Source: Myxococcota bacterium | GTDB taxonomy: Bacteria; Myxococcota_A; Bradymonadia; Bradymonadales; Bradymonadaceae | Reading direction: 5' to 3' | Length of the DNA: 32,057 nt | Assembly (NCBI GenBank): GCA_036155555.1 | Contig: JAYZVO010000125.1 | Coordinates: 1 to 32,057, forward strand | Shown: one piece after another, positions 508 through 19,874 of the stretch | How positions within the stretch are numbered: the stretch's first letter is position 1 | Layout of the letters: every line of letters begins with the position of its first letter | Made by a program: the position numbers and the translations under genes | The notes under the pieces: model-generated | What the model saw: the letters and a program-made list of their open reading frames with translations, nothing else | Told to the model about the DNA's origin: nothing | The model's database searches: none

Positions 508-2185
508 GATGACCTACAACTCGTTTATGAAGTTTGGTGCGCTCAGCAGCGCAATTTTGTGTATGGCCATGTTCAGCGGCTGTGGAGAAGCTGAAGATCA
601 GTTTCTGACGCTGGACCAGGGTCTCCAGAAAGGGACCCCTGGCGCACAAAACGGAGACGGCAACTTCTGCAAAGGCGCCGAACTCTGCGCCGAGGGCGAA
701 GGTGACTGCGACCGCAACGATCAATGCGAAGCGGGGTTAATTTGTGGCCACAACATCGGCGATCGCTTCGGATTCCAGAGCGGCCTGGACGTGTGTGTGA
801 AATCACACTGCACTAACAACCGCGTGGATGGAGACGAGGTCGGGCTTGATTGCGGCGGCTCATGTGGGCAATGCCCGACGATGAACCCGTACCCGGTCGG
901 CCACCCGCTCTACTGCAAAAACCCGTCGTTCCCCTGCCAGACAGCCGAAGGACCATGTTACAACGACGGCCACTGCGACACGGGTCTTGTCTGTGGCGTG
1001 AACAAGGCAGGTTCTTATGGCGTGATGCCTCCCGAGATGAACGTTTGCGTTCTGGAGTCCTGCGACAACGACATCCTGGACAGCGGCGAGACAGGGCTCG
1101 ACTGCGGCGGCTCGTGCGGCACATGCGATCACAAGGTGATCCAAACAGCGCTTGGCGACAACCACACCTGTGCGTTGCGCGCCGACGGCACGGTGGCTTG
1201 TTGGGGCCGCAACAACGTGGGACAGCTCGGCGATGGGACGATCAGCACGCGCACTTCTCCGGTCGTGGTTCCTGGCCTGATGAATGTCCAGGAAATCGTC
1301 GCGGGCTCCTTGCACACCTGCGCGCGCCTCAAAGACTTCACGGTGCGTTGTTGGGGCAGCAACGGAAACGGGCAGCTCGGTGATGGCACCAAGACAACGA
1401 GACGTAGCCCGACGCCAGTCTCGGGCCTGGGCAGCGTGCTCTCGCTCACGGCGGGCGGCTATCACACCTGCGCGACCCGCGCCAATGGTACGGTCTCTTG
1501 TTGGGGTCGCAACAACTACGGGCAGCTCGGCGACGGGACCCAGACCGAGCGCACCTTGCCAACACGCGTCGTCGCCCTCGAAGGCTCGAAGGCCGTCGCT
1601 GCTGGCGCCAACCACACCTGTTCTCGCCTCGCGGACGGGACAGCGCGTTGTTGGGGACGAAATTATGGTGGACAGCTCGGCGACGACACGACCACGGACA
1701 GCCCGCTGCCTGTCGTTGTTGTGGGATTGACGGACATCAAACAGATGACCGCAGGTCTCGGCCACACGTGCGCGATTCAAAACAGCGGCGCCGCGTTCTG
1801 CTGGGGCTCGAACAACAACTCTCAGCTCGGCACGGGCACGAGCGGCATCCAGCGCGTCCCGACGGCGGTCTCAGGGTTGAGCAGCGGCGTCTCGCACATC
1901 GGCGCGGGCGCCAACCACACCTGCGCAGCCATCAACGATGGCACCGCGCGCTGTTGGGGGCTGAACACCAACGGTCAGGTGGGGGATGCCTCGAACACGA
2001 CGCGTGCGCTGCCAGTGACAGTGTCCGGTTTGAGCGGAGCAGTCAGGATCTCGGGCGGCGCGAGGCACACATGCGCTGCTCAATCGACAGGTGCCTCCAG
2101 TTGTTGGGGAGCAGGCAACTTCGGCCAGCTCGGCAACGGCGGAACGGCCAATAGCAACACCCCTGTCACCGTGACGTTCCCTTGA
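508..2185 (+). CDS. Secreted lipoprotein with two tandem Cys-rich modules followed by a 7-repeat RCC1-type beta-propeller
   Basis: Signal peptide plus lipobox (MKFGALSSAILCMAMFSGCGEAE). Two copies of a Cys-rich module end in ...DGDEVGLDCGGSCGQC and ...DSGETGLDCGGSCGTC. Seven repeats then follow of the type HTC..R.DGTv.CWGrNnyGQLGDGT, an RCC1 signature. Alternative start at 527. Confidence 0.8.
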
Positions 2186-2218
2186 GAAGAGGTCAGCCAG
2201 GCTGACCTCTTCTCAAGG
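2180..2218. repeat. Perfect 19-bp-arm inverted repeat (CCTTGAGAAGAGGTCAGCC-A-GGCTGACCTCTTCTCAAGG) overlapping the stop codon of the upstream gene, with no T-tract after it
   Basis: Read directly from the sequence. The stop TGA at 2183-2185 lies in the left arm. Confidence 0.8.
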
Positions 2219-2251
2219 AATGTCCTGGGCAGGCTCGCAAAATAAGGGTTC

Positions 2252-4297
2252 ATGATGAAGCATTCTCTCAAATCACTCCTCATACTCGGTTCGATGGTTT
2301 CATTGACCGCGTGTGGCGAAGCAGCCAACGAGTACTACGGCCCTGACGGTCAGATCCTACAGTCCTTGACCAAGGGGCAACCTGGCGCACAAGTAGGCGA
2401 CCTGGATTACTGCTACGATCCCAACAACCGTTGCGATGTTGGCGAAGGGAAATGCTCCAATCACAACCAGTGCCTGACTGGCCTTAAATGCGCCCTTCGT
2501 GGCGAGATTTACGGGCACCCAGGCTTGCGCGTGTGCCACCCGGCGCACTGCCTGAACTCGCGCCTGGATGCGGACAAAGGAGAGGTCGGCATCGACTGTG
2601 GCGGTGTATGTGGGGACTGTGAGTTCGCCGCGACCTGCTACAACGGGACCCAAGATCCTGGCGAGGAAGCCGTGGATTGTGGAGGCCCGGACTGCGATGC
2701 TTGCGAGACGATCGACCTCACGGTCAACTCTCCTAACCCTGACTCGGCCTACACTGGTCTCCCTCCCAGGGCTGCTGGGCGAGTGAACGCGGTGAGCATC
2801 GATCAGCGCGCCAACCGTACCGTGCAGTTCGAGATCGACGGGCAATCCGTCGGCTCGACGCAGAGCACCTCGAACGGCGCGTGGGAGTTCCGTCTCCCGG
2901 CGCGTCCTCCAGGCATCTACACGCTCCGCACGAGCGTGGACAATGGAGGCAACATCTCGGAGGACATCCGAGATTACCGCATCATCAACTCGACCAATCG
3001 CCCGGCATCGAGCCAACTCCAGCTTGGAGGAAAGTCGACGTCGATCTCGACGCGAGCGGCGACCATCGATCCTTCAAACCACTCGGTCATCGTCGGCGTG
3101 ACTTCGCTTGACTTCGTCTTCGGCTCGACCACGATCGAGCGAGGCAGCGCGGGAGGCATCGTCGCGTTCGTGGCGCGCGCGACGCCAGAAGGCGTGCCGC
3201 TGTGGGCGACGCGCGTCGCGGGCACAGGCTCGACAACGATCAACGCAGTCCGCACGCTCTCCAATGGAGAGATCGTGGTCCTGGGCGACTTCACCGGGAG
3301 CATCGACCTCGGCAGTGGCCCGGTCAACGCGGCAGGTTCACGCGATGCCTTTGTCGCCAAGTTCGACACGAACGGCCAGTTGGTCTGGGGCCGCGTGCTC
3401 TCGGCGACCGGCGCGACATCGATCCGAACGATCGCGATCACGGCACAGGATGAGATCATCGCCACTGGTAACTTCACCGGCACCGCCGACCTCGGAGGAA
3501 CGCTCACGCACCCCTCGGCGGGTGGGTTGGACATGTTCGTCACCAAGATCGACGCGAACGGCAATCACATCTGGGACCACACATTCGGCAGCTCGGGCCA
3601 GGATGTCGTCAACGACGTGAGCACCAACAATGATGGCGAGATTTACATCACGGGAGCTTACGCGAGCGCGATCTCGTTCGACGCCATCGACCTGGCAGGT
3701 CCGGGCACGAACAGCGCCTTCGTGACCAAGCTCTCGACCGTCGGGAAGGCGATCTGGGCCAAGGACATCGGCGGTGACGTGAACGATGCAGGCGGTCGCA
3801 TCGCGGTCGCACCCACTGGTGAAGTCGTGGTCACAGGGATCTTCAATGGCGATGTCGACTTTGGCGACGGCGTCTTCGTGACCACTGCCACGGACAACTT
3901 CGACATGTTTATGGCGCGCTTCTCGAGCGAGGGCGACCACGTCTGGAGCCGTCAAATCCAGGCTGTTCTTGGCGACAGCATTACGGGGTTGGGCGTCGGT
4001 CCATCCAACAACATCTACATCACAGGTCGCACCTTCGAGACGATCGACCTCGGTGATGGCCCACGCACGACGGCCAACCTCGTCGACGGGTTCCTCGCGA
4101 CCTACTCCCCGACAGGAGAGCTCGCCAGCGAGCGCTTCTTCGACGCGGGCCGCGAGGTCACGCCACGCTCACTCTATGTCAACGGGCTCAACGCTTACAT
4201 CGTCAGCGGAGATCTCATCGGCGAAGATGTGGACTTCGGGACAGGGTCGCTCCCCAACACGTCGCGACGCGCTGGCTTCTTCGCGCGTTATCAGTAA
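2252..4297 (+). CDS. Secreted lipoprotein: paralogous Cys-rich module, an Ig-like domain, and about 8 SBBP-like beta-propeller repeats
   Basis: Lipoprotein signal (LILGSMVSLTACGEA). The Cys-rich N-terminus is paralogous to the 508-2185 protein (..RCDVGEGKCSNHNQCLTGLKCA.., ..DKGEVGIDCGGVCGDC, ..EEAVDCGGPDCDAC). A Big/Ig-like stretch follows (VQFEIDGQSVG...NGAWEFRLPARPPGIYTLRTSVDNGGNIS). Repeats then follow of the type 'aG..dDafVaKfd.nG..vW...G..g.D.g..ia....geivvtG.f.G..DfG'. Confidence 0.75.
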   Translation: MMKHSLKSLLILGSMVSLTACGEAANEYYGPDGQILQSLTKGQPGAQVGDLDYCYDPNNRCDVGEGKCSNHNQCLTGLKCALRGEIYGHPGLRVCHPAHCLNSRLDADKGEVGIDCGGVCGDCEFAATCYNGTQDPGEEAVDCGGPDCDACETIDLTVNSPNPDSAYTGLPPRAAGRVNAVSIDQRANRTVQFEIDGQSVGSTQSTSNGAWEFRLPARPPGIYTLRTSVDNGGNISEDIRDYRIINSTNRPASSQLQLGGKSTSISTRAATIDPSNHSVIVGVTSLDFVFGSTTIERGSAGGIVAFVARATPEGVPLWATRVAGTGSTTINAVRTLSNGEIVVLGDFTGSIDLGSGPVNAAGSRDAFVAKFDTNGQLVWGRVLSATGATSIRTIAITAQDEIIATGNFTGTADLGGTLTHPSAGGLDMFVTKIDANGNHIWDHTFGSSGQDVVNDVSTNNDGEIYITGAYASAISFDAIDLAGPGTNSAFVTKLSTVGKAIWAKDIGGDVNDAGGRIAVAPTGEVVVTGIFNGDVDFGDGVFVTTATDNFDMFMARFSSEGDHVWSRQIQAVLGDSITGLGVGPSNNIYITGRTFETIDLGDGPRTTANLVDGFLATYSPTGELASERFFDAGREVTPRSLYVNGLNAYIVSGDLIGEDVDFGTGSLPNTSRRAGFFARYQ

Positions 4298-4437: not shown

Positions 4438-5607
4438 ATGCCCAAGTCAGCCCTCTCAAACGCTTCGACGCACCCACCGCGCGCCGAAAGGCCGCTCAAG
4501 GTCCTCCATGTCCTCCCCTGGATCACCCACGGGGGTGTCGAGAAGCGACGGTTGGAGCTGATCCAGAAGCTCGACCCTGCTCGTTTCGAGCAGCGATTCT
4601 TGACCTCGCGCGCAGACGGAGCCGTCGCTGACGCGCTCGCCAGCGCGAACATCCCTGTCACAGTGATCGATGGGCCCTGGTCGATCCTCAACCTCGACGC
4701 GATCAACGCGGTGCAAAGCTACGCCGCTGAGTGGAAACCAGACATCATCCACGGCGCCGTCTTTGAAGGTTGCGTGATGGCCGCGCTCGGCGGTTATCTG
4801 GCAGGAGTGCCGCACCGAATCATCGAGGAGACCGCGGGATCGCCGCACCGTTCCTGGCGCGGAGACCTGCTACTCTCTGGCGTCGCCGCGATCGCCACGC
4901 ACTGCGTCGGGATCTCGCCATACACCGCACAGTTCCTACAGGATCGCTCGCAAGTCCCCGCGTCGAAGGTGAGCGTTATCGTCAATGGCACCCCCTTTCC
5001 CGAGGAGCTCGGCGAGGATGGCAAGCGCGCCTCGAGGGCGCGCTTCGGCATCCCCGAGGACGCGCTCGTGATCGGTTGCCTGGGGCGCATGTTCGATAGC
5101 ATCAAGCGATTCAGCGACTTGCTCGCAGCGATGACCATCCTCGAGCATCCCGAGCGACCGATTTATTTGCTGCTCGGAGGCGATGGTCCAGACCTCGAAA
5201 AACTTCGCGCGAAAGCGCGCGAACTCGGCGTCTCGGAGCGCGTGATCTTCGCGGGTTTTCATGGCGACGTCGCGCCGCTCTATGCCTGCATGGACATCTT
5301 CGCGCTGGCGTCGGTCTTTGAAGGGTTCGGGCTGGTGCTCGCGGAGGCGATGAGCGTCTCGCTCCCTGTGGTCGCCACGCGCGTGGGGGCGATCCCCTTC
5401 ATCGTCGAAGATGGCGCCAGCGGATTGCTCGTCCCGCACAGCTCCCCCAAAGCGCTCGCGGCATCGCTCCAACGCCTTATCGATGCCCCTGAACTACGCA
5501 TATCCCTGGGTCGAACAGGCCGAGAGAGGGCGCGCCGAGACTTCTCCTCCGAACGCTACGCTGGTGATGTGGAGCGCCTCTACACGGACCTCATGGCGGC
5601 GACGTGA
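4438..5607 (+). CDS. Glycosyltransferase, family 4 (GT-B fold)
   Basis: N-terminal 'KVLHVLPWITHGGVEKRRLELIQKLD'. C-terminal GT4 signature 'EGFGLVLAEAMSVSLPVVATRVGAIPFIVEDGASGLLV'. Confidence 0.8.
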   Translation: MPKSALSNASTHPPRAERPLKVLHVLPWITHGGVEKRRLELIQKLDPARFEQRFLTSRADGAVADALASANIPVTVIDGPWSILNLDAINAVQSYAAEWKPDIIHGAVFEGCVMAALGGYLAGVPHRIIEETAGSPHRSWRGDLLLSGVAAIATHCVGISPYTAQFLQDRSQVPASKVSVIVNGTPFPEELGEDGKRASRARFGIPEDALVIGCLGRMFDSIKRFSDLLAAMTILEHPERPIYLLLGGDGPDLEKLRAKARELGVSERVIFAGFHGDVAPLYACMDIFALASVFEGFGLVLAEAMSVSLPVVATRVGAIPFIVEDGASGLLVPHSSPKALAASLQRLIDAPELRISLGRTGRERARRDFSSERYAGDVERLYTDLMAAT

Positions 5608-6881
5608 GCGCCCCGAATGGATTGAAGAGAACGATGGATCGATCACGCACGTTGTTTGTCACCTGGGATGGCCCCGCGCAGAACTATATGGAGGCCCTCT
5701 TCTTCCCCATCTTCGAGCGCGCGTTGCGCGAGCAGATCGACATCGGCGTCCTCCAATTTACCTGGGCGAGCGAGGAGGTCCGCCAACGCATCGGCGCGTC
5801 GGCGGCCAAGCACGGCCTCGAGTACCGCGGCAGCGACGCGCTCCGGCGCCCTCGTCAATTAGCCGTCCCCGCCATGATCGCCTATGGCGCCGCGCGCGTG
5901 ATCGCCGAGGTCGACCGCGGCGACTGGGACACGCTCATGCCTCGCAGCATCATCCCCGCGTCGATGTGTTTGTTGGCGATGAAAGCCAGACCTCACCTGC
6001 GCCTCGTCTTTGACGCGGACGGGTTGATGGCGGACGAGCGCGTGGACTTCGCGGGATGGAGCCCCACGGGCGTACAATACCGCCTCTTTCGCGATTGGGA
6101 GGCGCAAGGCGTGCGACGCGCCAGCTCGGTGATCGTGCGCTCGGCGCATGCGAAGCGCATCCTCGCGAGCCGCGCAGGCGCGCACTGCGACCCAGATAAG
6201 ATCCATGTGATCCCCAACGCCAAGGACGACACGCTGTTCTCGCCGGGAGACGCAGCCTCTCGAGCAAAAACGCGAGAGGGGATGGGGATCGACGCCGAGG
6301 CGCCCTTACTGATTTATGCTGGCTCCCTCGGACCTCAGTATCACCCGCTCGGCATGCTCCAGCTCTTCGAGCGCGTGCACGCGCTCGATCCGCGCGCGCG
6401 CTTTCTCATCCTGAGCGGGATGCAAGAGGTCGCGAGAGAGCTGCTCCCGCGCATCGACAAGGCCGCGCGCGAGAATGTGATCATCCATCGCTGCGCCTCT
6501 CACGAGGTCGCGCCGCTGATGGCAGCAGCAGACCTCGGGCTCTCGTTGCGTCAACCGAGCTTCTCACAACAGGCGGTCTGCCCGATCAAGATCGCCGAGT
6601 ACCTGCTCTGCGGCCTCTCGGTGGTCATGCTCCGAGGCGTGGGCGATCTCGACGAACGCCTCGCGGACTCACCGGCGCTGCGCACGCTCGAGCAGGTCTC
6701 TCCAGAATCACTCGAGCAAGCCGCGCGCTGGTGCGTCGAAGACGTGATGCCAGCGCGCGCGGATATCCGCGAAGTCTCTCGTCAGGCAGGGCTCGACCAC
6801 TTTCGGCTCGATGACTGCGCGGACCAGTTGGCCGCGTTGCTCATGCCACCTCGCTCTCACACACCAAGGAAGACCTCATGA
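5604..6881 (+). CDS. Glycosyltransferase-like protein (GT-B fold, GT4-related); the start may be ATG 5634 instead of the GTG 5604 that overlaps the upstream stop
   Basis: 'LLIYAGSLGPQYHPLGMLQLFERV...RFLILSGMQE...CPIKIAEYLLCGLSVVM' resembles the GT4 C-terminal domain and E-x7-E region. The 4-nt overlap with the upstream stop (GTGA) suggests translational coupling. Confidence 0.6.
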   Translation: MSAPNGLKRTMDRSRTLFVTWDGPAQNYMEALFFPIFERALREQIDIGVLQFTWASEEVRQRIGASAAKHGLEYRGSDALRRPRQLAVPAMIAYGAARVIAEVDRGDWDTLMPRSIIPASMCLLAMKARPHLRLVFDADGLMADERVDFAGWSPTGVQYRLFRDWEAQGVRRASSVIVRSAHAKRILASRAGAHCDPDKIHVIPNAKDDTLFSPGDAASRAKTREGMGIDAEAPLLIYAGSLGPQYHPLGMLQLFERVHALDPRARFLILSGMQEVARELLPRIDKAARENVIIHRCASHEVAPLMAAADLGLSLRQPSFSQQAVCPIKIAEYLLCGLSVVMLRGVGDLDERLADSPALRTLEQVSPESLEQAARWCVEDVMPARADIREVSRQAGLDHFRLDDCADQLAALLMPPRSHTPRKTS

Positions 6882-7813
6882 AGAAAGTGCTCATCACCGG
6901 AGGCGCCGGATTTATCGGTTCGCACCTGTGCGACCGACTCGTCGAGCAAGGAGACGAGGTGATCGTCCTCGACAACCTCACCAGCGGGAACCTCGGCAAC
7001 CTGGCAGGAGTGATCGATCAGATCACCTTCATCGAGGATGACGTGACCCGTGTGCTCGATCACCGCGACGCGTTCGAGGGAGTGACACACATCGTCCACC
7101 TGGCCGCGCTGATCAGCGGTTATGACAGCCTGAACGAGCCGGATGATTACCTGGCGCAGAACGTGGGCGCCTTGCTCCGCGTGCTGGAGCTTGCCAGAGA
7201 TCTTGGTGGCGTGCGGATCTCCTTCGCGTCGAGCTCCACGGTGTATGGAAACAGCGTCGAGCCGATCAAGCTCGAGACGCAACGCCCCGAACCGATCACG
7301 ATGTACGCGCTGACCAAGCTCTCTGGCGAGCACCTGCTCGAGATGTATCGCCCGCTCTACAACTACAGCTACGTCGCGTTGCGATTCTTCAACGTCTACG
7401 GACCTCGCCAGAGCCCGAACCACCCCTACGCCAACGTGACCTGCAAGTTCTCGCAGGCCGCGGCGCTCGGCGCGGGGATCAAGCTCTTTGGCGATGGCCA
7501 GCAAACGCGCGATTTTGTCTACGTCGACGACGTGGTCAACTCTCTGCTGGTCACCATGGATGGCGCGCCGAGCAACCTCTACAACGTGGGCAATGGGGAA
7601 GATCACTCGATCTTGAAGCTCATCGACACGCTCGAGGGCATCGTCGAAAAACCCTTCGAGATCGAGCGCTGCGACCCTTGGCCAAACGACATCCGCAAGA
7701 TCATCGCGGACACCGAGCGCCTCACGAGCGAGACCTCATGGCGCGCGACGACCTCGCTTCGTGATGGGCTGGCGCGCACGGTCGAGTTCTTCCAGGCCGA
7801 GGAGCAGGCATGA
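6878..7813 (+). CDS. NAD-dependent sugar-nucleotide epimerase/dehydratase (extended SDR family)
   Basis: 'MKKVLITGGAGFIGSHLCDRLVEQGDEVIVLDNL' Rossmann motif. Catalytic 'YALTKLSGE' (YxxxK). ATGA overlap with the upstream stop. RBS AAGGAAG. Confidence 0.85.
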   Translation: MKKVLITGGAGFIGSHLCDRLVEQGDEVIVLDNLTSGNLGNLAGVIDQITFIEDDVTRVLDHRDAFEGVTHIVHLAALISGYDSLNEPDDYLAQNVGALLRVLELARDLGGVRISFASSSTVYGNSVEPIKLETQRPEPITMYALTKLSGEHLLEMYRPLYNYSYVALRFFNVYGPRQSPNHPYANVTCKFSQAAALGAGIKLFGDGQQTRDFVYVDDVVNSLLVTMDGAPSNLYNVGNGEDHSILKLIDTLEGIVEKPFEIERCDPWPNDIRKIIADTERLTSETSWRATTSLRDGLARTVEFFQAEEQA

Positions 7814-8757
7814 GCAACGTCGAGCGCGAGTATGGTGACGTGGCGTTGGTGATCGCGACCTTCAGGCAGGATGAGCCCGTGCTTCGCCTGCTCGAGGACG
7901 CGTTTGATGCAGATAACAAGCACCCCTTCGCCAAGATCGCGATCGTGGACTCGCTGGGCAGCGGGGCGATCGAGCGCGCGATCGAGGAGCGAGGCTGGGA
8001 GCGCGTCACCTATCACAACGCCGATCACAACCTCGGCTCGGCGGGCAACCTCGCCATGCGCCTCGAGCTCGCCGCACAAGATCCCGAGGTCAACTGGGCC
8101 TACGCGCTCAACCATGATGGCGAGCTGCAATGGGACGCGCTGTTGGCGCTCGTGAGCAGGGGGCGCGCGCAGTTGGCAAGGGGAACACGCGTCGGCGCAC
8201 TCTACCCGCTGCGCTACACGACGCATTTGCAAAAGTACAACCTCACAGGCCGCACCACGTTGCCGATCCCTTACGTGGGGACGAAGACAAAACCCACCGG
8301 CGACAGCTTCAGGGTTTATTGGGCGAGCTCCAACGGGGCGCTGTATGCGACCGAGCCAGTGCGAGAGGGGCTTGGCCCCTGGCCAGATTTGTGGATGGGC
8401 TGGGAGGATCTCGGCTACGGCTGGCAGCTCGACGCGCACGGCTGGCACCAGGAGGTGGTCTGCGACGCGATCTTCGAGGATGGCTACGAGTACACCGCGA
8501 AGGGAAGCGGCGCGGCCAAGGTGCAGATCACGGACAAGCCGACCTGGTATGCTTATTACCAACTTCGTAACCTGATGCTCGTCGCGAAACGCAACGAGCG
8601 AGGACCGCTGACCTGGAGCGTGATCGCAGGACGCGTCGCGCTCGAGTTTGGCCTGAGCCTGACCTTGCGTCCCGATCGCGCGCGGCGTATACCCTTCCTT
8701 CTCAATGGGATAGCGGATGGGTTGAGCGAGCAAAGCGGCAAGTGGCTCTACCCTTAA
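7810..8757 (+). CDS. Putative GT-A fold (GT2-like) glycosyltransferase
   Basis: 'VALVIATFRQDEPVL...IAIVDSLGSG...YHNADHNLGSAGNLAMRLE...ALNHDGE...WMGWEDLGYGW' resembles rhamnosyl/galactofuranosyl-transferase GT2 motifs. ATGA overlap with the epimerase gene. Confidence 0.45.
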   Translation: MSNVEREYGDVALVIATFRQDEPVLRLLEDAFDADNKHPFAKIAIVDSLGSGAIERAIEERGWERVTYHNADHNLGSAGNLAMRLELAAQDPEVNWAYALNHDGELQWDALLALVSRGRAQLARGTRVGALYPLRYTTHLQKYNLTGRTTLPIPYVGTKTKPTGDSFRVYWASSNGALYATEPVREGLGPWPDLWMGWEDLGYGWQLDAHGWHQEVVCDAIFEDGYEYTAKGSGAAKVQITDKPTWYAYYQLRNLMLVAKRNERGPLTWSVIAGRVALEFGLSLTLRPDRARRIPFLLNGIADGLSEQSGKWLYP

Positions 8758-8783
8758 CACCTTATAAAAGGAGGGCTTGCACG

Positions 8784-9551
8784 ATGGGCCAAAAATCACA
8801 CTCGAGCAATCCGGCAAGCGTCCATCACTGGCGCGATGTCAGCCACAACCCTAACGACCGGCGAGTGCGCACTTACCTGCGAGACTACTTGCGCGAGCGT
8901 TATCAGGGTCGCATCCCCTCGACGCATGATTTCCTCAAGGACTTCGTGCGTGATTGCACCGCGCTCGACATCGGCGTGGTGGCGCACGAGATCGAGCGCA
9001 CGAAGTCGCCGCTCTGGAAGCACAACATGGTCCGCAGCACCGCGACTCATGCGGTGGGCGTCGACATCATCGAGGACGCCGTCGCCGCGCTCGTCGAGCG
9101 CGGCTTCGACATCCGCTGCGTGGACGCCACGAGCGACGTCGATCTTGGCGAGCGCTTCGAGCGCGTGGTGATCGGCGATGTGATCGAGCACGTGAACAAC
9201 CCGGTCAAACTGCTCCAGTTCGCCAAGCGCCACCTCACACCTGATGGGCGCATCCTTTGCACGACGCCCAACCCCTTCTTCATCGCCACGCTCGTCAGCT
9301 CCGTGCGTGAAGGGGTCTTTATCCCGAACGCCGAACACGTCGCCTGGATCTCTCCGACGATGGCCATCGAGATCGCCCACCGCGCAGGTCTGGAGCTCGA
9401 CGCATACTGGCATACGCAAGGGGACGGCAAGACGTTCAAGCGCAAGCTCGCGGTGAAGATGCTCGAGCTCGGGAACCTCCGTGAGAGCGAGCTCTTCTCG
9501 GGGAGCTTCTACTATGTCTTCAAGCTCTCCAGCGATAGCGAACGAGACTGA
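8784..9551 (+). CDS. Class I SAM-dependent methyltransferase
   Basis: RBS AAAGGAGGG 8 nt before ATG 8784. Motif I region '...CTALDIGVVAHEIERTKSP...'. '...VVIGDVIEHVNNPVKLLQFAKRHLTPDGRILCTTPNP' is typical of Methyltransf_11/23-type post-motif II/III. Confidence 0.7.
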   Translation: MGQKSHSSNPASVHHWRDVSHNPNDRRVRTYLRDYLRERYQGRIPSTHDFLKDFVRDCTALDIGVVAHEIERTKSPLWKHNMVRSTATHAVGVDIIEDAVAALVERGFDIRCVDATSDVDLGERFERVVIGDVIEHVNNPVKLLQFAKRHLTPDGRILCTTPNPFFIATLVSSVREGVFIPNAEHVAWISPTMAIEIAHRAGLELDAYWHTQGDGKTFKRKLAVKMLELGNLRESELFSGSFYYVFKLSSDSERD

Positions 9552-9599
9552 TTCGGCCATTGCGCCGAACAACCTTCGCTCGCATCAGGAGAAGCGCGC

Positions 9600-10244
9600 G
9601 TGAAAGAGAAGAGCACCGACGCCAAGGCCAACGCGCCAGCGATTTTTGCCCCGACCGGTTATGTCTCACGCGAAGAGCACGAGACGCTCAAAGCACAGCG
9701 CGGCGCTTGCGTCTGGCTCACGGGGCTCTCGAGTAGCGGGAAGACATCGATCGCGCGCGCGCTCCAGCGCGCGCTCCACGCGCGCGGCGTGCACACCTAC
9801 GCGCTCGATGGGGACATGTTGCGGGGAGGTCTTTGCAAAGACCTCCCCTTCACACAGGAAGGGCGCGAGGAGAACATCCGACGCGCTGGCGAGGTCGCGC
9901 AGTTGATGGTAGACGCTGGGCTGATCGTCACCGCCGCGTTTATCTCGCCCTACCGTGAGGGACGAGCTCTTATCCGCGAGCGCATGCCTCGAGGGCGCTT
10001 CATCGAGTGCCACGTATCCTGCCCGCTCACGGTTTGCGAAGCGCGCGATACCAAGGGACTCTATGCGCGCGCCCGCGCTGGCGAGCTGGATCACTTCACA
10101 GGGATCTCGGCACCGTATGAAGCGCCCGAAGCGCCCGACTTGAAGCTCGAGACCGCTCCGACCGGGATCACCCCCGAGGAGTGTGCGATGAAGATCATAG
10201 CCTTGCTCGAAGAGCGAGGCTTGCTCTCGAAAGACACCCCCTGA
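9600..10244 (+). CDS. cysC: Adenylyl-sulfate (APS) kinase, stand-alone
   Basis: '[21 protein letters not shown]' P-loop. '[55 protein letters not shown]'. '...[36 protein letters not shown]' matches the conserved APS kinase core. GTG start with upstream AGGAG. Confidence 0.85.
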
Positions 10245-10262
10245 ACGCCAAAGGAAGAAGCA

Positions 10263-11543
10263 ATGAGCTGGCGAGTGGCCTCGTTTATGGAGGGGTTTCC
10301 GGCGCGCTCGGAGACCTATATTTTGTGGCACATGACCGAGTTGATTCGCGCGGGTCACGACGTGACATTGTACCCGGTGCGGCGCAACTCTCCCGAGGGT
10401 GCGCACGATGAGGTCTCTCGCTACAACTTCATGGAGCGCGTCGTCGCCCCACCCGTGTGGCCAGACGAGCGCGAAGCGCGCGCCTGGGACGCCTTCACCT
10501 CGCTCGCGCGCGCGATGACACGCGATCCGATGGCGCTGCTGCGGTTGCTCGCCCACGCCACAGGAGATCGCGGCGTCGGCTGGCCCCAGATCGTGCGACA
10601 GATCGCGTGGGCACCCATAAAGAAACGACACGACGTGGCGCACGCTTACTTTGGCCCGCCAGGACGACGCGCGCAGTTCTTGCGCGATGTTGGCATGCTG
10701 CGCGCGCCGCTCGTGGTGAGCTTCCTCGGCTTCGATCTCAACGTCCTCCCAGGCAGGACAGGCCCCGATTACTACGGGCGATTGTTTGAAGGCGCAGACT
10801 GTCTGTGCGTCTCCTCTCGGTTTATGCGTCGCAAGCTCCTCTCGCTCGGCGCTCCCGAGGAGCGCATTCGCGTCCTCCCGATCGGGCTCCCCTTGAAAGG
10901 ATTTGCCTTCCGCCCGAGGCAACTCGCTGACGGCGAGACGATGACCTTGATCGCTGCCGCTCGCCTCACGGAAGTGAAAGGAATCTCCTGGGGATTGAAG
11001 GGCCTCGCGCTCGCGCGCGAGGCAGGTTTGGATGTGCGCTGGGAGATCTTTGGCGACGGCCCACTGAGAGCAGAACTCGAAGCACTGAGAGCGGAGCTTG
11101 GCCTGGAAGACGCGGTGACGTTCCATGGGTTCGTGCCAATTCAGGAGGTCCAACGCGCCATGGAGACCGCGCACGCGTGCCTGTTTCCCGGTGTCGCAGC
11201 AGCAGATGGCGCGGAAGAGGCGCTCGGAGGAGCGGTGCTCGAGGCGCAAGCCTGCGGCTTGCCCGTGATCGCATCCGAGGTTGGAGGAATCCCGGAAGGT
11301 TTCGTCCCCGGAGTCTCGGGGTATCTCGTCCCACAGCGCGATCCTGAAGCGATCGCGAAGGCGCTACGCGACCTCCACGACAACCGCGAGCAGTGGCCGA
11401 CCATGGGCGAAGCAGGGCACGCGCACGTTCAGGAGCGCTACGATTGCGAGGCGCTCAACGAGCGATGGGAGCGGCTCTATGACGGGTTAGTCGCCGGAAC
11501 GCTCCCGACGCAGGCAGAGATCGACGCGCCGCTCACGCGCTGA
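10263..11543 (+). CDS. Glycosyltransferase, family 4
   Basis: RBS AAGGAAGAAG. 'ETMTLIAAARLTEVKGISWGLKGLA...WEIFGDGPLRAELEALRAELGLEDAVTFHGFV...GGAVLEAQACGLPVIASEVGGIPEGFVPGVSGYLV' are canonical GT4 motifs. Confidence 0.8.
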   Translation: MSWRVASFMEGFPARSETYILWHMTELIRAGHDVTLYPVRRNSPEGAHDEVSRYNFMERVVAPPVWPDEREARAWDAFTSLARAMTRDPMALLRLLAHATGDRGVGWPQIVRQIAWAPIKKRHDVAHAYFGPPGRRAQFLRDVGMLRAPLVVSFLGFDLNVLPGRTGPDYYGRLFEGADCLCVSSRFMRRKLLSLGAPEERIRVLPIGLPLKGFAFRPRQLADGETMTLIAAARLTEVKGISWGLKGLALAREAGLDVRWEIFGDGPLRAELEALRAELGLEDAVTFHGFVPIQEVQRAMETAHACLFPGVAAADGAEEALGGAVLEAQACGLPVIASEVGGIPEGFVPGVSGYLVPQRDPEAIAKALRDLHDNREQWPTMGEAGHAHVQERYDCEALNERWERLYDGLVAGTLPTQAEIDAPLTR

Positions 11544-11547
11544 AAGC

Positions 11548-12654
11548 TCATCCTCGCCTCGGCGCGCGATCATAAAGATCGTGCAGGGCGCCGATGTAAC
11601 GTGACGGCGAGAAACGACGGTGCGCGATCTCTCTCGCCGCATCACCGAGCTCCTCTCGTTCGGCATCGCTCCACTCGTGAGCGGTGCGCAAGACATCGAT
11701 CCAACCTTGCAAATCAGTGGAGTCCGTGAGGTAGGCATCTCCGAGCTCTCCCATCACCTCACGCACGCCGCTCGCGGTCGAGCCGAGCGGTGGGATGCCG
11801 GTGGCCATCGCCTCGAGCAACGCCACGCTGCATCCTTCGCTGTGGGAAGGGATGACGAACACATCGTGAGCATCGAGCAGCTCTCGGACATCTGTGCGAA
11901 AACCGAGCATGGTGACGTGCGCGCCGAGGTCGAGCGTCTCGACGAGCGCCGAGAGCTCGTCGCGCAACGCGCCATCACCTGCGATATCGAGCGTGATGTC
12001 GCGTCCTTCCTCGTGCACCAGGTGTGCGACGGCGCGGAGCAACGTCTCGTGGTTTTTCACTGGCACCAACCGCCCCGCGGTGAACAGGCGCAACGGCCCC
12101 TGACGTTTGTAACCTCGGGTACGGGCGGTGAAGAATCGAGGATTGCCGCAGTTGTAGAGCAACTCGACACGATCGCGAGGCATGCGATCCTCTGTCAAAA
12201 GGTAATCACACGTCGCCTGCGAGACGCCGATCACGACATCGACGAGCCTGGAGATCGCCGCGTAGGCGAGGTTGCCTGAAGCAGAGCGCGCGGGCACGCC
12301 TGTGTCCTCGATGATCGAGAGCGGAGTGCCCGCGAGCCAGCTCGCGATGGCGCCATGAAACATCGCCTCGGCGATGCTGGCGTGGAGCACATCTGGCTTT
12401 TGTTGCGCGAGGTAAGCCCACAATTTCAAGGTCGCGCGCGGGTTGCGCACGCTCGGGTCGACGTCGAGGACATCGACGGGGACACCGAGCTCGCGGATCG
12501 CCTCGGCCGCCTGGCCCGGCTTCCAGAAGGTGCAAACGCGCAGCTCGAAGCGCTCGTGGTCCATGAGCGAGGATTGGAGCGTCACGCGCGACTCCACGCC
12601 GCCAAAGTCAAGGACTGGCAACAGGCGCACGATCTTCTTTCTACGATGGGACAT
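11548..12654 (-). CDS. Glycosyltransferase, family 4
   Basis: 'KKIVRLLPVLDFGGVESRVTLQSSL...LRLFTAGRLVPVKNHETLLRAVAHL...DIAGDGALRDELSALVETLDLGAHVTMLGFR...EGCSVALLEAMATGIPP'. Convergent with the previous gene, with 4 nt between the stops. Confidence 0.8.
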   Translation of the reverse strand: MSHRRKKIVRLLPVLDFGGVESRVTLQSSLMDHERFELRVCTFWKPGQAAEAIRELGVPVDVLDVDPSVRNPRATLKLWAYLAQQKPDVLHASIAEAMFHGAIASWLAGTPLSIIEDTGVPARSASGNLAYAAISRLVDVVIGVSQATCDYLLTEDRMPRDRVELLYNCGNPRFFTARTRGYKRQGPLRLFTAGRLVPVKNHETLLRAVAHLVHEEGRDITLDIAGDGALRDELSALVETLDLGAHVTMLGFRTDVRELLDAHDVFVIPSHSEGCSVALLEAMATGIPPLGSTASGVREVMGELGDAYLTDSTDLQGWIDVLRTAHEWSDAEREELGDAAREIAHRRFSPSRYIGALHDLYDRAPRRG

Positions 12655-12873
12655 AAGCCAACAACTTCCGGCAGTTCCATGATTTTTGCGAGGGCCTGAC
12701 CCTCTTCGACTTCGTAAGCATGTACACCATCAAGAGGTCCAACTCCAGACGCAGGCGTTCGAAGAGGATGCCCTTCGTTTGCACACTGAGCCCGATTATG
12801 ATTGCATCGTCGCGGCGAGAGATGGGGTTAGAGATGAAGCAGCACGTTCGAGCAAATCACTGGAGACGCGACC

Positions 12874-14202
12874 ATGAATGATCTCTGGATCACCCCCATG
12901 GTCGCCATGGTAGGGGCGTTGTTCCTTGCCATCCACACGAGCAGGACGCGACGTTGGGAGACGGGCGTGCTCTGGCTAAGTTGGCTCGCGCATGTGGTGA
13001 GCGCGGTCGCCATGGTGCTCTTGACCAAGTACTTCTTTGGCGGCGGCGACATGATCGCGTATCACCGCGAAGCGCTGGTCTACGCGGACTTGCTCAAGAC
13101 GGACTCGGCCTACTTCTCGGACATCTTCCTGTACTCGATCGGACGAAACCCCCAAAACCCGATGCTCTTTTTGGCAGGAACATCCACCGGCGCGATGTTC
13201 GGCGCGGGAACGTTCCTGTCGGTGTTGTTGGGAGGATCGCTCTATGCGATCTGCATGGCGATCGCCATGCTGGGCCTCTTCTCCAAGTATATGATCTACA
13301 AGGCGCTGGCGATCTCACTGCCGGAGCGTTGCCACCGCGTGACCCTTTTGGTGTGCATGCTGTTGCCATCGATGGTGTTTTGGACAAGCGGCTTGCTCAA
13401 GGAGGCGCTCGCCATGATCGGCATGGGGCCGCTCTGCCTGGGGAGCGCCTTATTGGTGCAACGAAAGCGCTTCTTCCTCGGCGGCGCGCTGATCCTTGTG
13501 GGTGGATTCATCATCTCCATTTACAAGTCCTACATCCTCATTCCATGGCTGCTCGTGGTGGGGATCTGGTTCTACTGGCAGCGCACGTTGGCGAGCAAAG
13601 GGAGCATCCGGCTGCTGTCGCAGCCGATCTATATCGCGCTCGCGTTCGGCCTGGCCTTTGGTGGGATCGTCATGCTCGGTGAGTTCTTCCCGCGCTATTC
13701 GTTCGCGCGCGTGACGGACGAGATCGCGCAGCTGCAATCACTAGGGCAGCGCATCTCCGGTGGCTCGAACTATGTGATCGCGGACGCGCCAGCGCGCTCG
13801 GCCGGAGCACAGCTCGCCCTGTTGCCCGTCGGCCTCCTCTTCTCGCTCTTTCGACCGCTCCCGTTCGAGGCGAGGAACTTCGCCTTGTTGCTCAATGTCG
13901 CCGAAATGATCGTGGTGCTCTGGCTCTGGTGGAGGTTGTTTCGCGTGAGGCCGCTGCGCCAAACATTGCGCGCGCTGTTCACGAGCCCTGTGTTGGTCGC
14001 GTCCCTCGTCTTCGTGATCCTCTTTGGCGCCATCGTCGGCATCGCGACGACAAATATCGGGACGCTCTCGCGCTATCGCATCCCGATGATGCCCTTCTAC
14101 ATCATGCTGCTCGCGGTCCTTGGCGATCCGAAGCTTTTGGCAAAGCCGGCGACCGCGCCCACCTCGAGAGCTCGCAGGCAGCGGCGGCGAACGCGCAGTT
14201 GA
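12874..14202 (+). CDS. Polytopic membrane protein, Wzy/O-antigen-polymerase- or EpsG-like (putative repeat-unit polymerase)
   Basis: At least 10 predicted TM segments, loops rich in aromatics, and no soluble-domain motifs. It sits in a glycosyltransferase cluster and is divergently transcribed from the GT4 at 11548-12654. The family assignment is inference from topology and context. Confidence 0.5.
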   Translation: MNDLWITPMVAMVGALFLAIHTSRTRRWETGVLWLSWLAHVVSAVAMVLLTKYFFGGGDMIAYHREALVYADLLKTDSAYFSDIFLYSIGRNPQNPMLFLAGTSTGAMFGAGTFLSVLLGGSLYAICMAIAMLGLFSKYMIYKALAISLPERCHRVTLLVCMLLPSMVFWTSGLLKEALAMIGMGPLCLGSALLVQRKRFFLGGALILVGGFIISIYKSYILIPWLLVVGIWFYWQRTLASKGSIRLLSQPIYIALAFGLAFGGIVMLGEFFPRYSFARVTDEIAQLQSLGQRISGGSNYVIADAPARSAGAQLALLPVGLLFSLFRPLPFEARNFALLLNVAEMIVVLWLWWRLFRVRPLRQTLRALFTSPVLVASLVFVILFGAIVGIATTNIGTLSRYRIPMMPFYIMLLAVLGDPKLLAKPATAPTSRARRQRRRTRS

Positions 14203-14278: not shown

Positions 14279-14830
14279 ATGCGATCTTCCACCCTGCTCC
14301 CTGTTGCCCTGGCGCTGTTTGCCTTATCGGCCTGTGATCGAGCTCGAGTCGATGATCGCGTGACGCCGACGCCACCGGTCAATCCGCTTGTCGCCGAGAT
14401 GTGCCCGGACACGACACAGATGAAGGTAGACTCGGAGAAGATGTGCACGCAGATCGGGTGCACCAACGAGCTGCGCGTCGTCCTGCCGGAGGCGTTGACG
14501 AAGACGCCAGGCATGTACCGCGTCGCGGTGAAGTCGCGCGGCGAGGATGCCACGTGCGAGTTCACGCTCCCTGTCACGTCGTGTGATCAGCGCCCGACTT
14601 GCAGTGATGAAGAGAAGCTCGTCGCGGGCGTCTCGGGGTGCGCCTCGAGCGCCGAAGATCAGATGATCGGAGAGCTTTACCTGCGCGACCTCCCTCCCGA
14701 GGTCGCGCTGACCATCGAGCGTGACGGCGCCGTCGTGCTCGATGAGAGATTCTCGCCGACCTACAGCTCGGGGCAACCCAATGGAGCGGGCTGCGAGCCC
14801 CGATGCTGTCAGGCCGAAGAGCGCCTCTGA
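14279..14830 (+). CDS. Hypothetical lipoprotein (Cys-containing, secreted)
   Basis: Signal plus lipobox 'LPVALALFALSACD'. High GC3. No recognizable catalytic motif. Confidence 0.5.
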   Translation: MRSSTLLPVALALFALSACDRARVDDRVTPTPPVNPLVAEMCPDTTQMKVDSEKMCTQIGCTNELRVVLPEALTKTPGMYRVAVKSRGEDATCEFTLPVTSCDQRPTCSDEEKLVAGVSGCASSAEDQMIGELYLRDLPPEVALTIERDGAVVLDERFSPTYSSGQPNGAGCEPRCCQAEERL

Positions 14831-14834
14831 AGAA

Positions 14835-15710
14835 TCAATCGCCCACCAGCGCGTCGCGCGCATCCGAGAGCTTCGCCATCTCGTCATCGCCCAATGTCGG
14901 GTAATTGATCGGGAGGGACTTGAGCGTATCGACGATGATCTCGGCGACGCGCAAGCGCATGTAAGGCTTGTCGTCTGCCGGAATCGCATACCATGGAGCC
15001 CAGGGACGCGAGGTCTTGTCCAGCGCCTCCTGGTAAGCGTTCATGTAGGCGTCCCAGTGGCCGCGCTCCTTGACGTCGCTCATGGCAAACTTCCAGTTGC
15101 GCGCAGGATCATCTATGCGCTTGAGAAACCTTGCCTTTTGCTCATCACGCGAGACATTGAGCCAGAACTTGATGATGACGGTGCCGTTGCGCGCCAGGTG
15201 TTTTTCGTGGTCGCGGATCGACTCCAGGCGTTGCTCGAACAGCTCCTCGAGGGAGTCGGGCTTGAAGGGGAGGCGTTGGTTGTCGAGGATGCCCGGATGG
15301 ACGCGCACGACGAGGACTTCCTCGTAGTAAGAGCGGTTGAAGATACCGATCCTGCCGCGCTCGGGGAGGCACTTGGCGGTGCGCCAGAGGAAGTCGTGGT
15401 CGAGCTCCTCGGTCGAGGGCTGCTTGAAGGAGTAGACCTGACACCCGGCGGGGTTCACGCCGCTCATCACCGCGCGGATGGTGCCATCCTTTCCGGCCGC
15501 GTCCATCGCCTGAAAAATCAGCAAGACGGAGTGATGATCGCTGGCGTAGAGCACGCGCTGGAGATCGCGCAGCTCCTCGATCTTGTCCGCGAGCATGCGC
15601 TTGGCCTTCTTCTTCCCGGGCGCTTTCTTTGGTGGTTTGCAAGAAACCTTCGAGAGCTTGAAGGACCCGTCAAAGGGCACCAAAAGCTCGTTTTCGATCG
15701 CCTCGAACAT
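14835..15710 (-). CDS. ppk2: Polyphosphate kinase 2 (single-domain PPK2)
   Basis: 'IFQAMDAAGKDGTIR' Walker A. 'IFNRSYYEEVLVVRVHP'. 'FWLNVSRDEQKARFLKRIDDPARNWKF'. 'WYAIPADDK'. All are hallmark PPK2 motifs. Strong RBS AGGAGGAG. Confidence 0.85.
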   Translation of the reverse strand: MFEAIENELLVPFDGSFKLSKVSCKPPKKAPGKKKAKRMLADKIEELRDLQRVLYASDHHSVLLIFQAMDAAGKDGTIRAVMSGVNPAGCQVYSFKQPSTEELDHDFLWRTAKCLPERGRIGIFNRSYYEEVLVVRVHPGILDNQRLPFKPDSLEELFEQRLESIRDHEKHLARNGTVIIKFWLNVSRDEQKARFLKRIDDPARNWKFAMSDVKERGHWDAYMNAYQEALDKTSRPWAPWYAIPADDKPYMRLRVAEIIVDTLKSLPINYPTLGDDEMAKLSDARDALVGD

Positions 15711-15853
15711 ACTCCGCTCCTCCTGTCGAATCGGTGGTGGGCGCGCTGCCCTCGAATCATCACGTGCGAGCCAAGGAGTGTATCAAAAGATGAGAGGGTG
15801 CACACCGCTCGATCGATCGCAGCGGGCATGTTCTCACTGACGCCAGGCGGCGC

Positions 15854-15940
15854 GGGGAGAGAGGGGGCGCGGGTTTTTCCGCGCCGTCTTCGCGCGCCCC
15901 ATGGGCTCTTCATGGAAAAACCCGCGCCCCCTCTCTCCCC
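15854..15940. repeat. Perfect 27-bp-arm inverted repeat (GGGGAGAGAGGGGGCGCGGGTTTTTCC ... GGAAAAACCCGCGCCCCCTCTCTCCCC) with a 33-nt spacer, in the divergent intergenic region between ppk2 and the NfeD/flotillin operon
   Basis: Read directly; the arms are exact reverse complements. Coordinates may be off by 1 because the sequence line at 15841 appears to be one character short. Confidence 0.75.
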
Positions 15941-15989
15941 TCGGCAACCGCCGCGTTCGCCTCTTTCTCGCGTGGCGTCACGTCGGCGC

Positions 15990-16075
15990 AGCCTTATTCG
16001 ATTTTAACAAACAAAACAATTTGATTTTTGTAATTTTCCAAACACAAAAACTCCCTACAATCATACTCGAGAGGC
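15990..16075. promoter_or_regulatory. AT-rich island of about 85 bp (roughly 25% GC) in an otherwise high-GC intergenic region; contains a 'TACAAT' -10-like hexamer at about 16058
   Basis: 'ttattcgattttaacaaacaaaacaatttgatttttgtaattttccaaacacaaaaactccctacaatcat'. A candidate promoter, UP element or nucleoid-protein site for the downstream NfeD/flotillin genes. I could not fit a convincing -35. Confidence 0.25.
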
Positions 16076-16389
16076 ATGCCGCAACGGGGCGATCGACCAG
16101 TGGGATGGAACATCGCTCTGATGTCTCTCAACGTGGGAAGGGGATGGGCGCGGCCGATCTGGTTCGTCCAGATCGGCCGCGTCTTGTCTGTCAGAGGGTC
16201 GATAGTGTAGCTTGGCACGCACTTCAAACGAGGAAAGACTCGAAATGATGGGAGAGGTACGCGACATCGCTTGCAGGCGATGACGCGGTGGGTTTGAGAG
16301 CACGCGATGTGCATGTGCGATGAGCGCCAGAGCGATGGCGAGATTCCGCGCAGGCTTCGTGCTGGATTTGGTTGGAAAGAGAGGCGCAC

Positions 16390-17235
16390 ATGCAAGAATT
16401 TTTAACCATCATCCTCTCGATGCCCACGGTCGTATACACGGTGTTGATGGGACTCATGGCCCTCTACTGGGTCACGGTCATCATGGGCGCGGTGGATATC
16501 GACCTCTTCGATCTGGATGCAGATCTGGACGCAGATATCGACCTCGACGCGGACGTGGACCTGGATGTGGACGCGGATATCGACGTCGATGTCGACGCAG
16601 GCGTGGACACAGACATCGATCTGGACGCAGCGCATGGGAGCGCAGGGGTTGTCGTCTCGCTGCTCTCGGCGCTCGGCCTGGTGGGTGTGCCGCTGACGAT
16701 CTCGCTCAGCATCCTGGTGCTCTTTAACTGGTCATTGACCTTCTTGCTCGCCTACTCGCTGGGCGCAGGCAAGGAACCATTGAGCACCTTGTTCGGCGTG
16801 GCGGTCATGGGAGGGAGCTTGATCGCTTCGACGCTCTTGACCTCGATCGCGGTTCGTCCGATCCGCCCTCTCTTCCGCAGCAAGGCTGGCGCGAAAGCTG
16901 GCCGCGCGCTGGTGGGGATGACGATCAAGGTGACCTCGGGGAGCGTGACCGACACGTTCGGGCGCGCCGAGGGCACGTTGGATGACGCGACGATCAACTT
17001 CTCGATCCGATGCGAAGAGGAGAACAGCCTCTCCAAAGGCGATGACGCCCTGGTGATCGGATACGACGAGAACGCGCACGTTTACTACGTGGAGCCGCTC
17101 GATTCGATGTTGTCCGGGAAATCAAAGCACGGAGGGAAGAGCGCGCAGGAGCTCGAGGCTGTCTTCGACGAGCTCGAAGCTCAGCAAGAAGAAGAGGTCG
17201 AGGTCGGCGTCGAAGCCGAGGTCGACAAGGGCTAG
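16390..17235 (+). CDS. NfeD/YqiJ-like inner-membrane protein: N-terminal TM, acidic D-x repeat, 2-3 TMs, C-terminal OB-fold-like beta-barrel
   Basis: ATG 16390 is preceded by a purine-rich RBS; an alternative TTG start lies at 16372. Hydrophobic segments flank 'DIDLFDLDADLDADIDLDADVDLDVDADIDVDVDAGVDTDIDLDA'. The C-terminal 'LVGMTIKVTSGSVTDTFGRAEGTLDDATINFSIRCEEENSLSKGDDALVIGYDENAHVYYVEP' has the pattern of NfeD short-form OB domains. It lies immediately upstream of a flotillin gene, as in the yqiJ-yqiK and yuaF-floT arrangements. Confidence 0.65.
   Translation: MQEFLTIILSMPTVVYTVLMGLMALYWVTVIMGAVDIDLFDLDADLDADIDLDADVDLDVDADIDVDVDAGVDTDIDLDAAHGSAGVVVSLLSALGLVGVPLTISLSILVLFNWSLTFLLAYSLGAGKEPLSTLFGVAVMGGSLIASTLLTSIAVRPIRPLFRSKAGAKAGRALVGMTIKVTSGSVTDTFGRAEGTLDDATINFSIRCEEENSLSKGDDALVIGYDENAHVYYVEPLDSMLSGKSKHGGKSAQELEAVFDELEAQQEEEVEVGVEAEVDKG
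16495..16629 (+). repeat. Coding tandem repeat with 6-nt periodicity, (GAY-hydrophobic codon) about 22 times, encoding about 45 residues of alternating Asp and hydrophobic residues
   Basis: 'gatatcgacctcttcgatctggatgcagatctggacgcagatatcgacctcgacgcggacgtggacctggatgtggacgcggatatcgacgtcgatgtcgacgcaggcgtggacacagacatcgatctggacgca'. It also generates spurious antisense ORFs at 16402-16712. Confidence 0.85.
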
Positions 17236-17250
17236 GAGACGAACTTCGAC

Positions 17251-17307
17251 GTCACATCGTGCGGCGAGCAGAGAGAGCCGCGAGGCGTACTCGCCGCACG
17301 ATGTGAC
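17251..17307 (+). other. Strong hairpin (18-bp perfect stem GTCACATCGTGCGGCGAG/CTCGCCGCACGATGTGAC, 21-nt loop) 16 nt after the NfeD-like stop and 210 nt before the flotillin start
   Basis: Read directly. No U-tract follows. A candidate attenuator or RNA-processing/stability element setting the NfeD:flotillin ratio. Confidence 0.4.
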
Positions 17308-17518
17308 GCGATTGGAGATGGACGAAAGTGTCTATCAGCTGGTAAGTACGCCTCTCAACGAGAGGACATGAAAGGAAATGTGCCTTCGGTGTGCGTAGCT
17401 CGAGCGAGCGACTTCTCACCCCCGGGCGCTGGAAAGCAAGATACGACTCACGAGAAGCACTGGTGTCGCGGCGCGTTCGGGCGCGGTGCGGGCTTGAACC
17501 TGGAAGGAGGAAGAACTC

Positions 17519-19807: not shown

Positions 19808-19824
19808 GTGAGAGGCCCTAGAGT

Positions 19825-19874
19825 GTGAGGCGAGGAGAGTGACTGGGGTCACTCTCCTCGCCTCACGCGTTTTC
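19825..19874 (+). terminator. Rho-independent terminator after the flotillin gene (19-bp perfect GC-rich stem, 4-nt loop, then GCGTTTTC)
   Basis: GTGAGGCGAGGAGAGTGAC-TGGG-GTCACTCTCCTCGCCTCAC followed by GCGTTTTCAAC. Confidence 0.6.

Follow-up and report, generated by a model that had tools for sequence, protein, structure and literature searches.

Does a gene for sulfate activation that lies among glycosyltransferase genes mean that the glycan made there is sulfated? The question is raised by a contig of 32,057 nucleotides from a Myxococcota bacterium of the family Bradymonadaceae (JAYZVO010000125.1, positions 1 to 32,057, GenBank assembly GCA_036155555.1); the whole of this stretch, with a GC content of about 62%, is called the window below. 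Between positions 4438 and 14202 it carries a cluster of glycosyltransferase (GT) genes, and inside that cluster lies cysC (9600-10244, + strand), which encodes a stand-alone adenylyl-sulfate (APS) kinase, the enzyme that makes 3′-phosphoadenylyl sulfate (PAPS). A first-pass annotation, made from the letters alone, had suggested a sulfated and/or methylated surface polysaccharide. The glycan cluster and the methylated glycan are well supported, the latter better than sulfation, which is inferred from a genuine cysC, no sulfotransferase having been found among the window proteins scanned.

The locus is best explained as a lineage-specific form of an operon for surface-glycan assembly that is conserved in Myxococcota. 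A sulfate-ester modification of the glycan product is a plausible, unproven prediction from the gene content; that it is carried out by a sulfotransferase encoded elsewhere, with PAPS from the CysC of the operon, is a tentative reading, held with rather more doubt than assurance.

A genuine APS kinase inside the operon

The product of cysC exceeds the cutoffs of both NCBIfam models for adenylyl-sulfate kinases (NF003013, 248.6 bits against 163; TIGR00455, 224.7 bits against 138.7) as well as that of PF01583 (206.6 bits against 21.1; E = 2.6e-61), and it can be aligned to Arabidopsis APK1 (3uie; E = 5e-50) and human PAPSS1. In register with both enzymes are the P-loop, the DGD and FISPY motifs and the KGLY motif of the lid, together with equivalents of the Arg, Phe, Arg and Asn residues that contact APS in the Penicillium chrysogenum enzyme. 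Judged by its scores and motifs, the protein is a genuine, canonical stand-alone APS kinase, with no ATP sulfurylase fused to it or adjacent, as the first-pass annotation had it.

The pairing of a cysC-like gene with a methyltransferase gene within a glycan cluster is also reminiscent of the capsule locus of Campylobacter jejuni, which likewise holds a CysC-family kinase gene and methyltransferase genes, and the kinase of the window could by analogy act on a nucleotide other than APS, the adjacent methyltransferase completing a methyl-phospho-type modification. In Campylobacter, Cj1415-Cj1418 jointly make CDP-phosphoramidate 3′-phosphate, with Cj1415 3′-phosphorylating CDP-phosphoramidate for the O-methyl phosphoramidate decoration of the capsule (PMC11800397). 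However, equivalents of Cj1416, Cj1417 and Cj1418 are absent from the window, where neither glutamine kinase, cytidylyltransferase and amidohydrolase families (Pfam) nor nucleotidyltransferase, GATase and PEP-utilising-type families were matched among the proteins scanned, and the kinase is a canonical APS kinase both by score and by motif, down to the APS-contacting positions. Such a change of substrate is very improbable.

The setting of the gene is that of an operon member. It follows the methyltransferase gene (8784-9551) after 48 nt, and its stop codon lies 18 nt before the start of a GT4-family gene, GT4b (10263-11543), all three in the same orientation. Its GTG start is preceded at 8 nt by a GGAG ribosome-binding site, a ribosome-binding site also precedes GT4b, and neither of the intergenic gaps that flank cysC contains a terminator-like site. 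Both the GC content of cysC and its GC content at third codon positions (GC3) are indistinguishable from those of its neighbours, and neither measure gives a signature of horizontal transfer for the three-gene block.

A lineage-specific block in a conserved module

Orthologues of several or all of the core genes of the cluster, that is GT4a, GT4c, a divergent GT4, a short-chain dehydrogenase/reductase (SDR), a GT-A enzyme and a GT-C enzyme, are found at 35-70% identity in six distant clusters (L007, L009, L011, L012, L014 and L016). GT4a is 47-50% identical to its orthologues in L014, L016 and L012, and GT4c 56-63% to those in L014 and L016, while the divergent GT4 reaches 55-64% in L014 and L016 and 56-67% over two segments in L012. 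No orthologue of cysC or of GT4b was found in any of the six, and the methyltransferase of the window, which shares 25-30% identity over about 65 aa with those of the clusters without cysC, is not orthologous to them. With cysC and GT4b absent from clusters that have the same core, and with methyltransferases that are not orthologous, the stretch from the methyltransferase gene to GT4b (8784-11543) is a lineage-specific block inside a conserved Myxococcota module. The cluster is also rearranged relative to its relatives.

The same locus is present in at least 17 metagenomic contigs. In a second lineage (L050) cysC is 83% identical (dS 1.24), GT4b is present and the gene order is identical from the RCC1-repeat gene upstream of the cluster to the PPK2 gene downstream of it; across all 13 genes the ratio of non-synonymous to synonymous substitution rates (dN/dS) is 0.07-0.19, and 0.09 for cysC, indicating purifying selection. 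On whether GT4b accompanies cysC in other places, the only informative relative (L056) shows UDP-glucose dehydrogenase, MBOAT and RmlD genes; cysC was not seen on that contig, which is cut upstream. Nearly all independent public assemblies (L001-L006, L042-L049) break about 500 bp upstream of the RCC1-repeat gene, L042 being the sole contig that reads through, which suggests a repeat or a strain-variable junction at about positions 1-500 of the window.

From PAPS to a sulfated glycan

In the pathway proposed here, cytoplasmic GTs would assemble a lipid-linked oligosaccharide, using nucleotide sugars of which the SDR would supply one, and the methyltransferase would O-methylate a sugar. A priming phosphoglycosyltransferase and a flippase would be encoded elsewhere; the six clusters without cysC often have a Bac_transf gene or a PglK/MsbA-type ABC transporter gene beside them, which the window lacks. 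After flipping, the GT-C enzyme would add a sugar from a polyprenyl-phosphate donor. From APS, provided by a sulfurylase whose gene lies elsewhere, CysC would make PAPS; the operon link would most likely serve to tie the supply of PAPS to glycan synthesis, and a PAPS-dependent sulfotransferase encoded outside the window would sulfate the glycan. Since it has no priming transferase, flippase or exporter, the cluster is clearly incomplete, and other genes, among them perhaps one for a sulfotransferase, must be sited elsewhere. What speaks for a PAPS supply to sulfation of the glycan is that cysC is embedded in the operon, that the block is accessory and that it has been retained under purifying selection.

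A series of results weighs against this reading. When the window proteins were scanned with Pfam and NCBIfam, no family match to a sulfotransferase, an ATP sulfurylase (PF01747 or cysD/cysN), a PAPS reductase or CysQ was obtained; no sulfate transporter is present; and the motif [KR]xG[ST][TS], which resembles the 5′-phosphosulfate-binding (PSB) motif, is absent from all open reading frames (ORFs) of at least 150 aa in the window. The first-pass annotation had rightly seen no canonical sulfotransferase, and had proposed looking for one, or for an ATP sulfurylase, in the flanking genome: the 2.3 kb upstream that can be read on L042 gave no match to either, nor to a PAPS reductase or CysQ, and encode two more proteins with no family match and no sulfotransferase motif. 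All proteins encoded at 4438-14202 have been assigned to folds other than that of a sulfotransferase, the enzyme on which specificity depends, and the synteny with L050 is expected from common descent at such divergence and adds little.

Comparison with known systems likewise shows what is missing. It is well known that PAPS-synthesis genes can lie in loci for polysaccharides, Nod factors and sulfolipids, and in the systems of rhizobia (nodPQ/nodH) and mycobacteria (CysDNC/Stf) an APS kinase activity is dedicated to providing PAPS for the sulfation of a glycolipid or oligosaccharide, not for cysteine. There the kinase has a sulfurylase (NodP/NodQ, CysD/CysNC) and an identified sulfotransferase (NodH, Stf0) as partners, whereas neither is visible in the window. 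As in the window, cysC lies inside a GT-rich polysaccharide locus in Vibrio sp. KMM 8419 (PMC11641403) and Cobetia marina KMM 1449 (PMC11766843), where PAPS-synthesis genes are part of the clusters for structurally proven sulfated capsules, and these precedents speak for the sulfation reading. Those loci hold cysD, cysN and cysC (in Cobetia also cysQ and a sulfate permease), one to three sulfotransferase genes and ABC/Kps export genes, and the sulfation of what they make has been proven chemically; the window, by contrast, is known from its genes and has cysC only, with no sulfotransferase, sulfurylase or exporter, a difference that also counts against sulfation. A PAPS set together with sulfotransferases has been termed the hallmark of such clusters by those who described them (PMC11641403, PMC11766843). 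Only half of it is found here: the GTs and sugar-modifying genes are in place (six GTs, the SDR and the methyltransferase), while an in-cluster PAPS-dependent sulfotransferase is missing and of the PAPS set only cysC is present.

cysC elsewhere in the phylum

Almost as likely as a dedicated supply of PAPS is that cysC is a housekeeping passenger, that is a general APS kinase gene moved into the operon by rearrangement, which would serve assimilatory sulfate reduction via a PAPS reductase or provide PAPS for unrelated sulfated metabolites, the glycan being methylated and not sulfated. The closest relatives of the window gene are Myxococcota cysC genes, with a best identity of 54-57% among GTDB representatives. 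Outside the genus, the closest are those of L053 (69% identical) and L060 (63%), in which cysC is the last gene of a conserved operon (L053 852-6106, L060 246-3504) that runs from a PF01663 phosphodiesterase-family gene through DUF7120, a 267-aa membrane protein and a second PF01663 gene to cysC, the latter overlapping the gene upstream of it; this may be a different PAPS-using system. In a Myxococcota genome with a related GT cluster (L054), cysC is more than 500 kb from that cluster, among ruvX, yceG and glucokinase genes, and in two Myxococcota metagenome-assembled genomes it adjoins DsbD and OmpA genes (L021) or AdoHcyase-like and Ppx genes (L026). Stand-alone cysC is found in five different, unrelated contexts in other Myxococcota, so that its location drifts and the copy in the window may be the sole housekeeping one, which speaks against a role in sulfating the glycan. 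The want of a sulfotransferase, a sulfurylase or CysQ among the window proteins points the same way, as do a base composition with no sign of a recently imported cassette and the fact that the cluster has been rearranged relative to its relatives anyway.

Other observations are harder to reconcile with a passenger. The gene is packed closely into a GT operon, on the strand of its neighbours, and it would be odd for a sulfur-assimilation gene to be co-regulated with glycan genes. Other GTDB genomes supplied 24 cysC loci for comparison, about half of them cysN-cysC fusions as judged from ORF lengths, and not one has neighbours resembling the GTs of the window cluster. When the neighbours at 12 of these loci were scanned with Pfam, most of the families listed were those of transporter and sirohaem genes; an ATP sulfurylase appears once and a sulfotransferase not at all. 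A stand-alone cysC far from a sulfurylase is therefore normal in the phylum, and its embedding in a GT operon is unusual. Moreover, organisms with an APS reductase do not need cysC for cysteine synthesis, as is established for Mycobacterium tuberculosis. Sulfonucleotide reductases use either APS or PAPS (PMC1175818); a literature search on sulfur metabolism in Bradymonadales gave nothing useful.

Candidate sulfotransferases within the cluster

A sulfotransferase could also be hidden in the cluster itself. The first-pass annotation had proposed, as a fallback, that the protein at 7810-8757 or that at 5604-6881 is a non-canonical one, and the idea can be extended to the methyltransferase-fold protein or to GT4b; taken together, these candidates have very little probability.

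The protein at 7810-8757 (+ strand, 315 aa) gives no Pfam match itself. It has more than 400 homologues, several of which are named GT2 or rhamnosyltransferase, and 16 of 47 homologues match PF00535. Its AlphaFold2 model (pLDDT 95.4) finds GlfT2 as the best Foldseek match (4fiy; E = 3e-14, TM 0.69), followed by TarS, TarP, RmlT and ppGalNAcT, and D47, D103 and E199-D200 are invariant. By family evidence and structure this is a divergent, GT2-like GT-A glycosyltransferase with a GlfT2-like fold. The gene before the SDR, which starts at GTG 5604 or, in public gene calls, at ATG 5634 and ends at 6881 (+ strand), encodes a divergent GT4/GT-B glycosyltransferase: Pfam GT4 matches are weak on both lobes, and a profile built from six homologues of 5634-6881 matches the GT4 structures GlgM (3e-12), MshA, WaaG and PimB. 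Neither was kept as a candidate sulfotransferase: the one is a GT-A and the other a GT4 enzyme, both are also conserved in clusters without cysC, and no PSB-like motif is present in either.

The protein encoded beside cysC, which is specific to the lineage, departs from the usual motif I, with a conserved VLDIGxVEH in place of the canonical GxGxG loop for S-adenosylmethionine (SAM). As the strongest candidate that the block offers, it could be imagined as a sulfotransferase of an unrecognised family and a new fold that binds PAPS instead of SAM via DIGxVEH, which would make the block a self-contained sulfation cassette. Yet the gene (8784-9551, + strand, in an ORF that opens with GTG at 8742) matches PF13489 at 8e-11, as do all 42 of its relatives, its subfamily retains the SAM-binding acidic residues D94 and D114, and its profile finds in the PDB methyltransferases only, bar one marginal match to a Ktr potassium-uptake protein. 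We know of no sulfotransferase with a methyltransferase or GT-B fold, and consider this cassette highly unlikely; the class I SAM-dependent methyltransferase recognised in the first pass is upheld. The subfamily is large (2690 relatives at E ≤ 1e-3), and the nearest plasmid-borne relative lies in a Natrinema glycan cluster. GT4b (+ strand) is lineage-specific too, but it has strong GT4 matches on both lobes (PF13692, 1.9e-30) and matches the WcaL model TIGR04005 at 1.3e-46, below cutoff, as a WcaL-like GT4 glycosyltransferase.

The remaining genes of the cluster

Altogether nine genes occupy 4438-14202, eight on the + strand and one, GT4c, on the − strand, and six of them encode GTs (four GT-B, one GlfT2-like GT-A and one GT-C). 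The first, GT4a (4438-5607, +), is a GT4 glycosyltransferase by PF13692 (1.4e-33) and PF00534 (2.4e-32). The SDR (6878-7813, +), a GalE-like nucleotide-sugar epimerase/dehydratase, matches PF01370 at 7e-56 and has GalE as its best NCBIfam match (174 bits, below cutoff); its translation shows the GxxGxxG and YxxxK motifs. GT4c (11548-12654, −), another GT4 glycosyltransferase (PF00534, 8.6e-32), is convergent with GT4b. The five glycosyltransferases of the first-pass annotation are thereby borne out, namely three GT4 (Pfam, 1e-29 to 1e-33), a GT-B-like and a GT2-like enzyme, and so are its SDR and the translational overlaps it reported at 5604 (GTGA), 6878 and 7810 (both ATGA), the first of which depends on the GTG start.

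The sixth GT had been taken for a Wzy-like polymerase. The polytopic protein at 12874-14202 (+, 442 aa) has no Pfam match even at E ≤ 10, and it shows the multi-helix membrane fold common to ArnT, ALG, PMT and STT3, with a conserved acidic residue near the protein start, where GT-C enzymes have their catalytic Asp. It is a GT-C fold glycosyltransferase of a family for which there is no Pfam model; a Wzy O-antigen or exopolysaccharide polymerase was rejected in favour of this assignment, neither a Wzy_C/EpsG-family match nor a Wzy/WaaL fold having been found. In the sources consulted, the family is annotated only as ‘hypothetical protein’, and its organism-named homologues are all from Myxococcota; in relatives the gene adjoins a PglK/MsbA-type ABC transporter gene.

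Genes around the cluster

Directly after the GT-C gene lies a gene for a Cys-rich predicted lipoprotein (14279-14830, +) with an N-terminal lipobox-like ‘LFALSAC’ and no Pfam or NCBIfam family. It is syntenic with its counterpart in L050 (73% identity, dN/dS 0.19), and its membership of the cluster is uncertain. On the − strand follows a PPK2 polyphosphate kinase gene (14835-15710; TIGR03709, 363 bits against a cutoff of 247), 4.6 kb from cysC; a + strand ORF at 14721-16007 (428 aa) is spurious, the real gene being PPK2. In L026, cysC is about 2 kb from a Ppx/GppA exopolyphosphatase gene (12503-14077). A link between polyphosphate or ATP regeneration and PAPS synthesis is conceivable from these gene positions.

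Directly upstream of the GT operon (434-4297) lie genes for a protein with RCC1 repeats and for a lipoprotein-like SBBP beta-propeller protein, the latter with a LipL53-family match of 81 bits, below cutoff; both are syntenic in L050. Further downstream, three consecutive genes (16372-25713) may form a membrane-associated ATPase system. The first product is a membrane protein that carries an acidic (D-x)n repeat, the second (762 aa) matches flotillin (FloT) weakly, and the third (1,921 aa) combines DUF3686, DUF7902 and AAA domains. These genes are followed by two tandem genes for peptidyl-prolyl isomerases of the SurA-N and PpiC type (25778-28165; 379 and 411 aa). An ERF-family single-strand annealing recombinase (30573-31388, −) suggests that the remnant of a prophage or mobile element lies at the 3′ end of the window. 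Neither the Rfam nor the tRNA scan of this DNA returned anything.

Significance

At present the locus amounts to an ordinary cluster for glycan synthesis with one suggestive gene added, and a GT operon of Myxococcota that contains cysC by itself, with no sulfotransferase, departs modestly from a known arrangement. Of the new results, the more solid are the annotations of two families that Pfam describes poorly: a family of ‘hypothetical’ Myxococcota membrane proteins can be named GT-C, and an unannotated family of 315-aa proteins GlfT2-like GT-A. If the glycan is sulfated, the cluster would be, to our knowledge and from a literature search that was not systematic, the first lead from a genome to a surface polysaccharide of Myxococcota that is sulfated. 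A solitary cysC among the genes of a GT operon could then flag sulfation even where the sulfotransferase is encoded elsewhere, which would aid the mining of metagenomes for sulfated polysaccharides.

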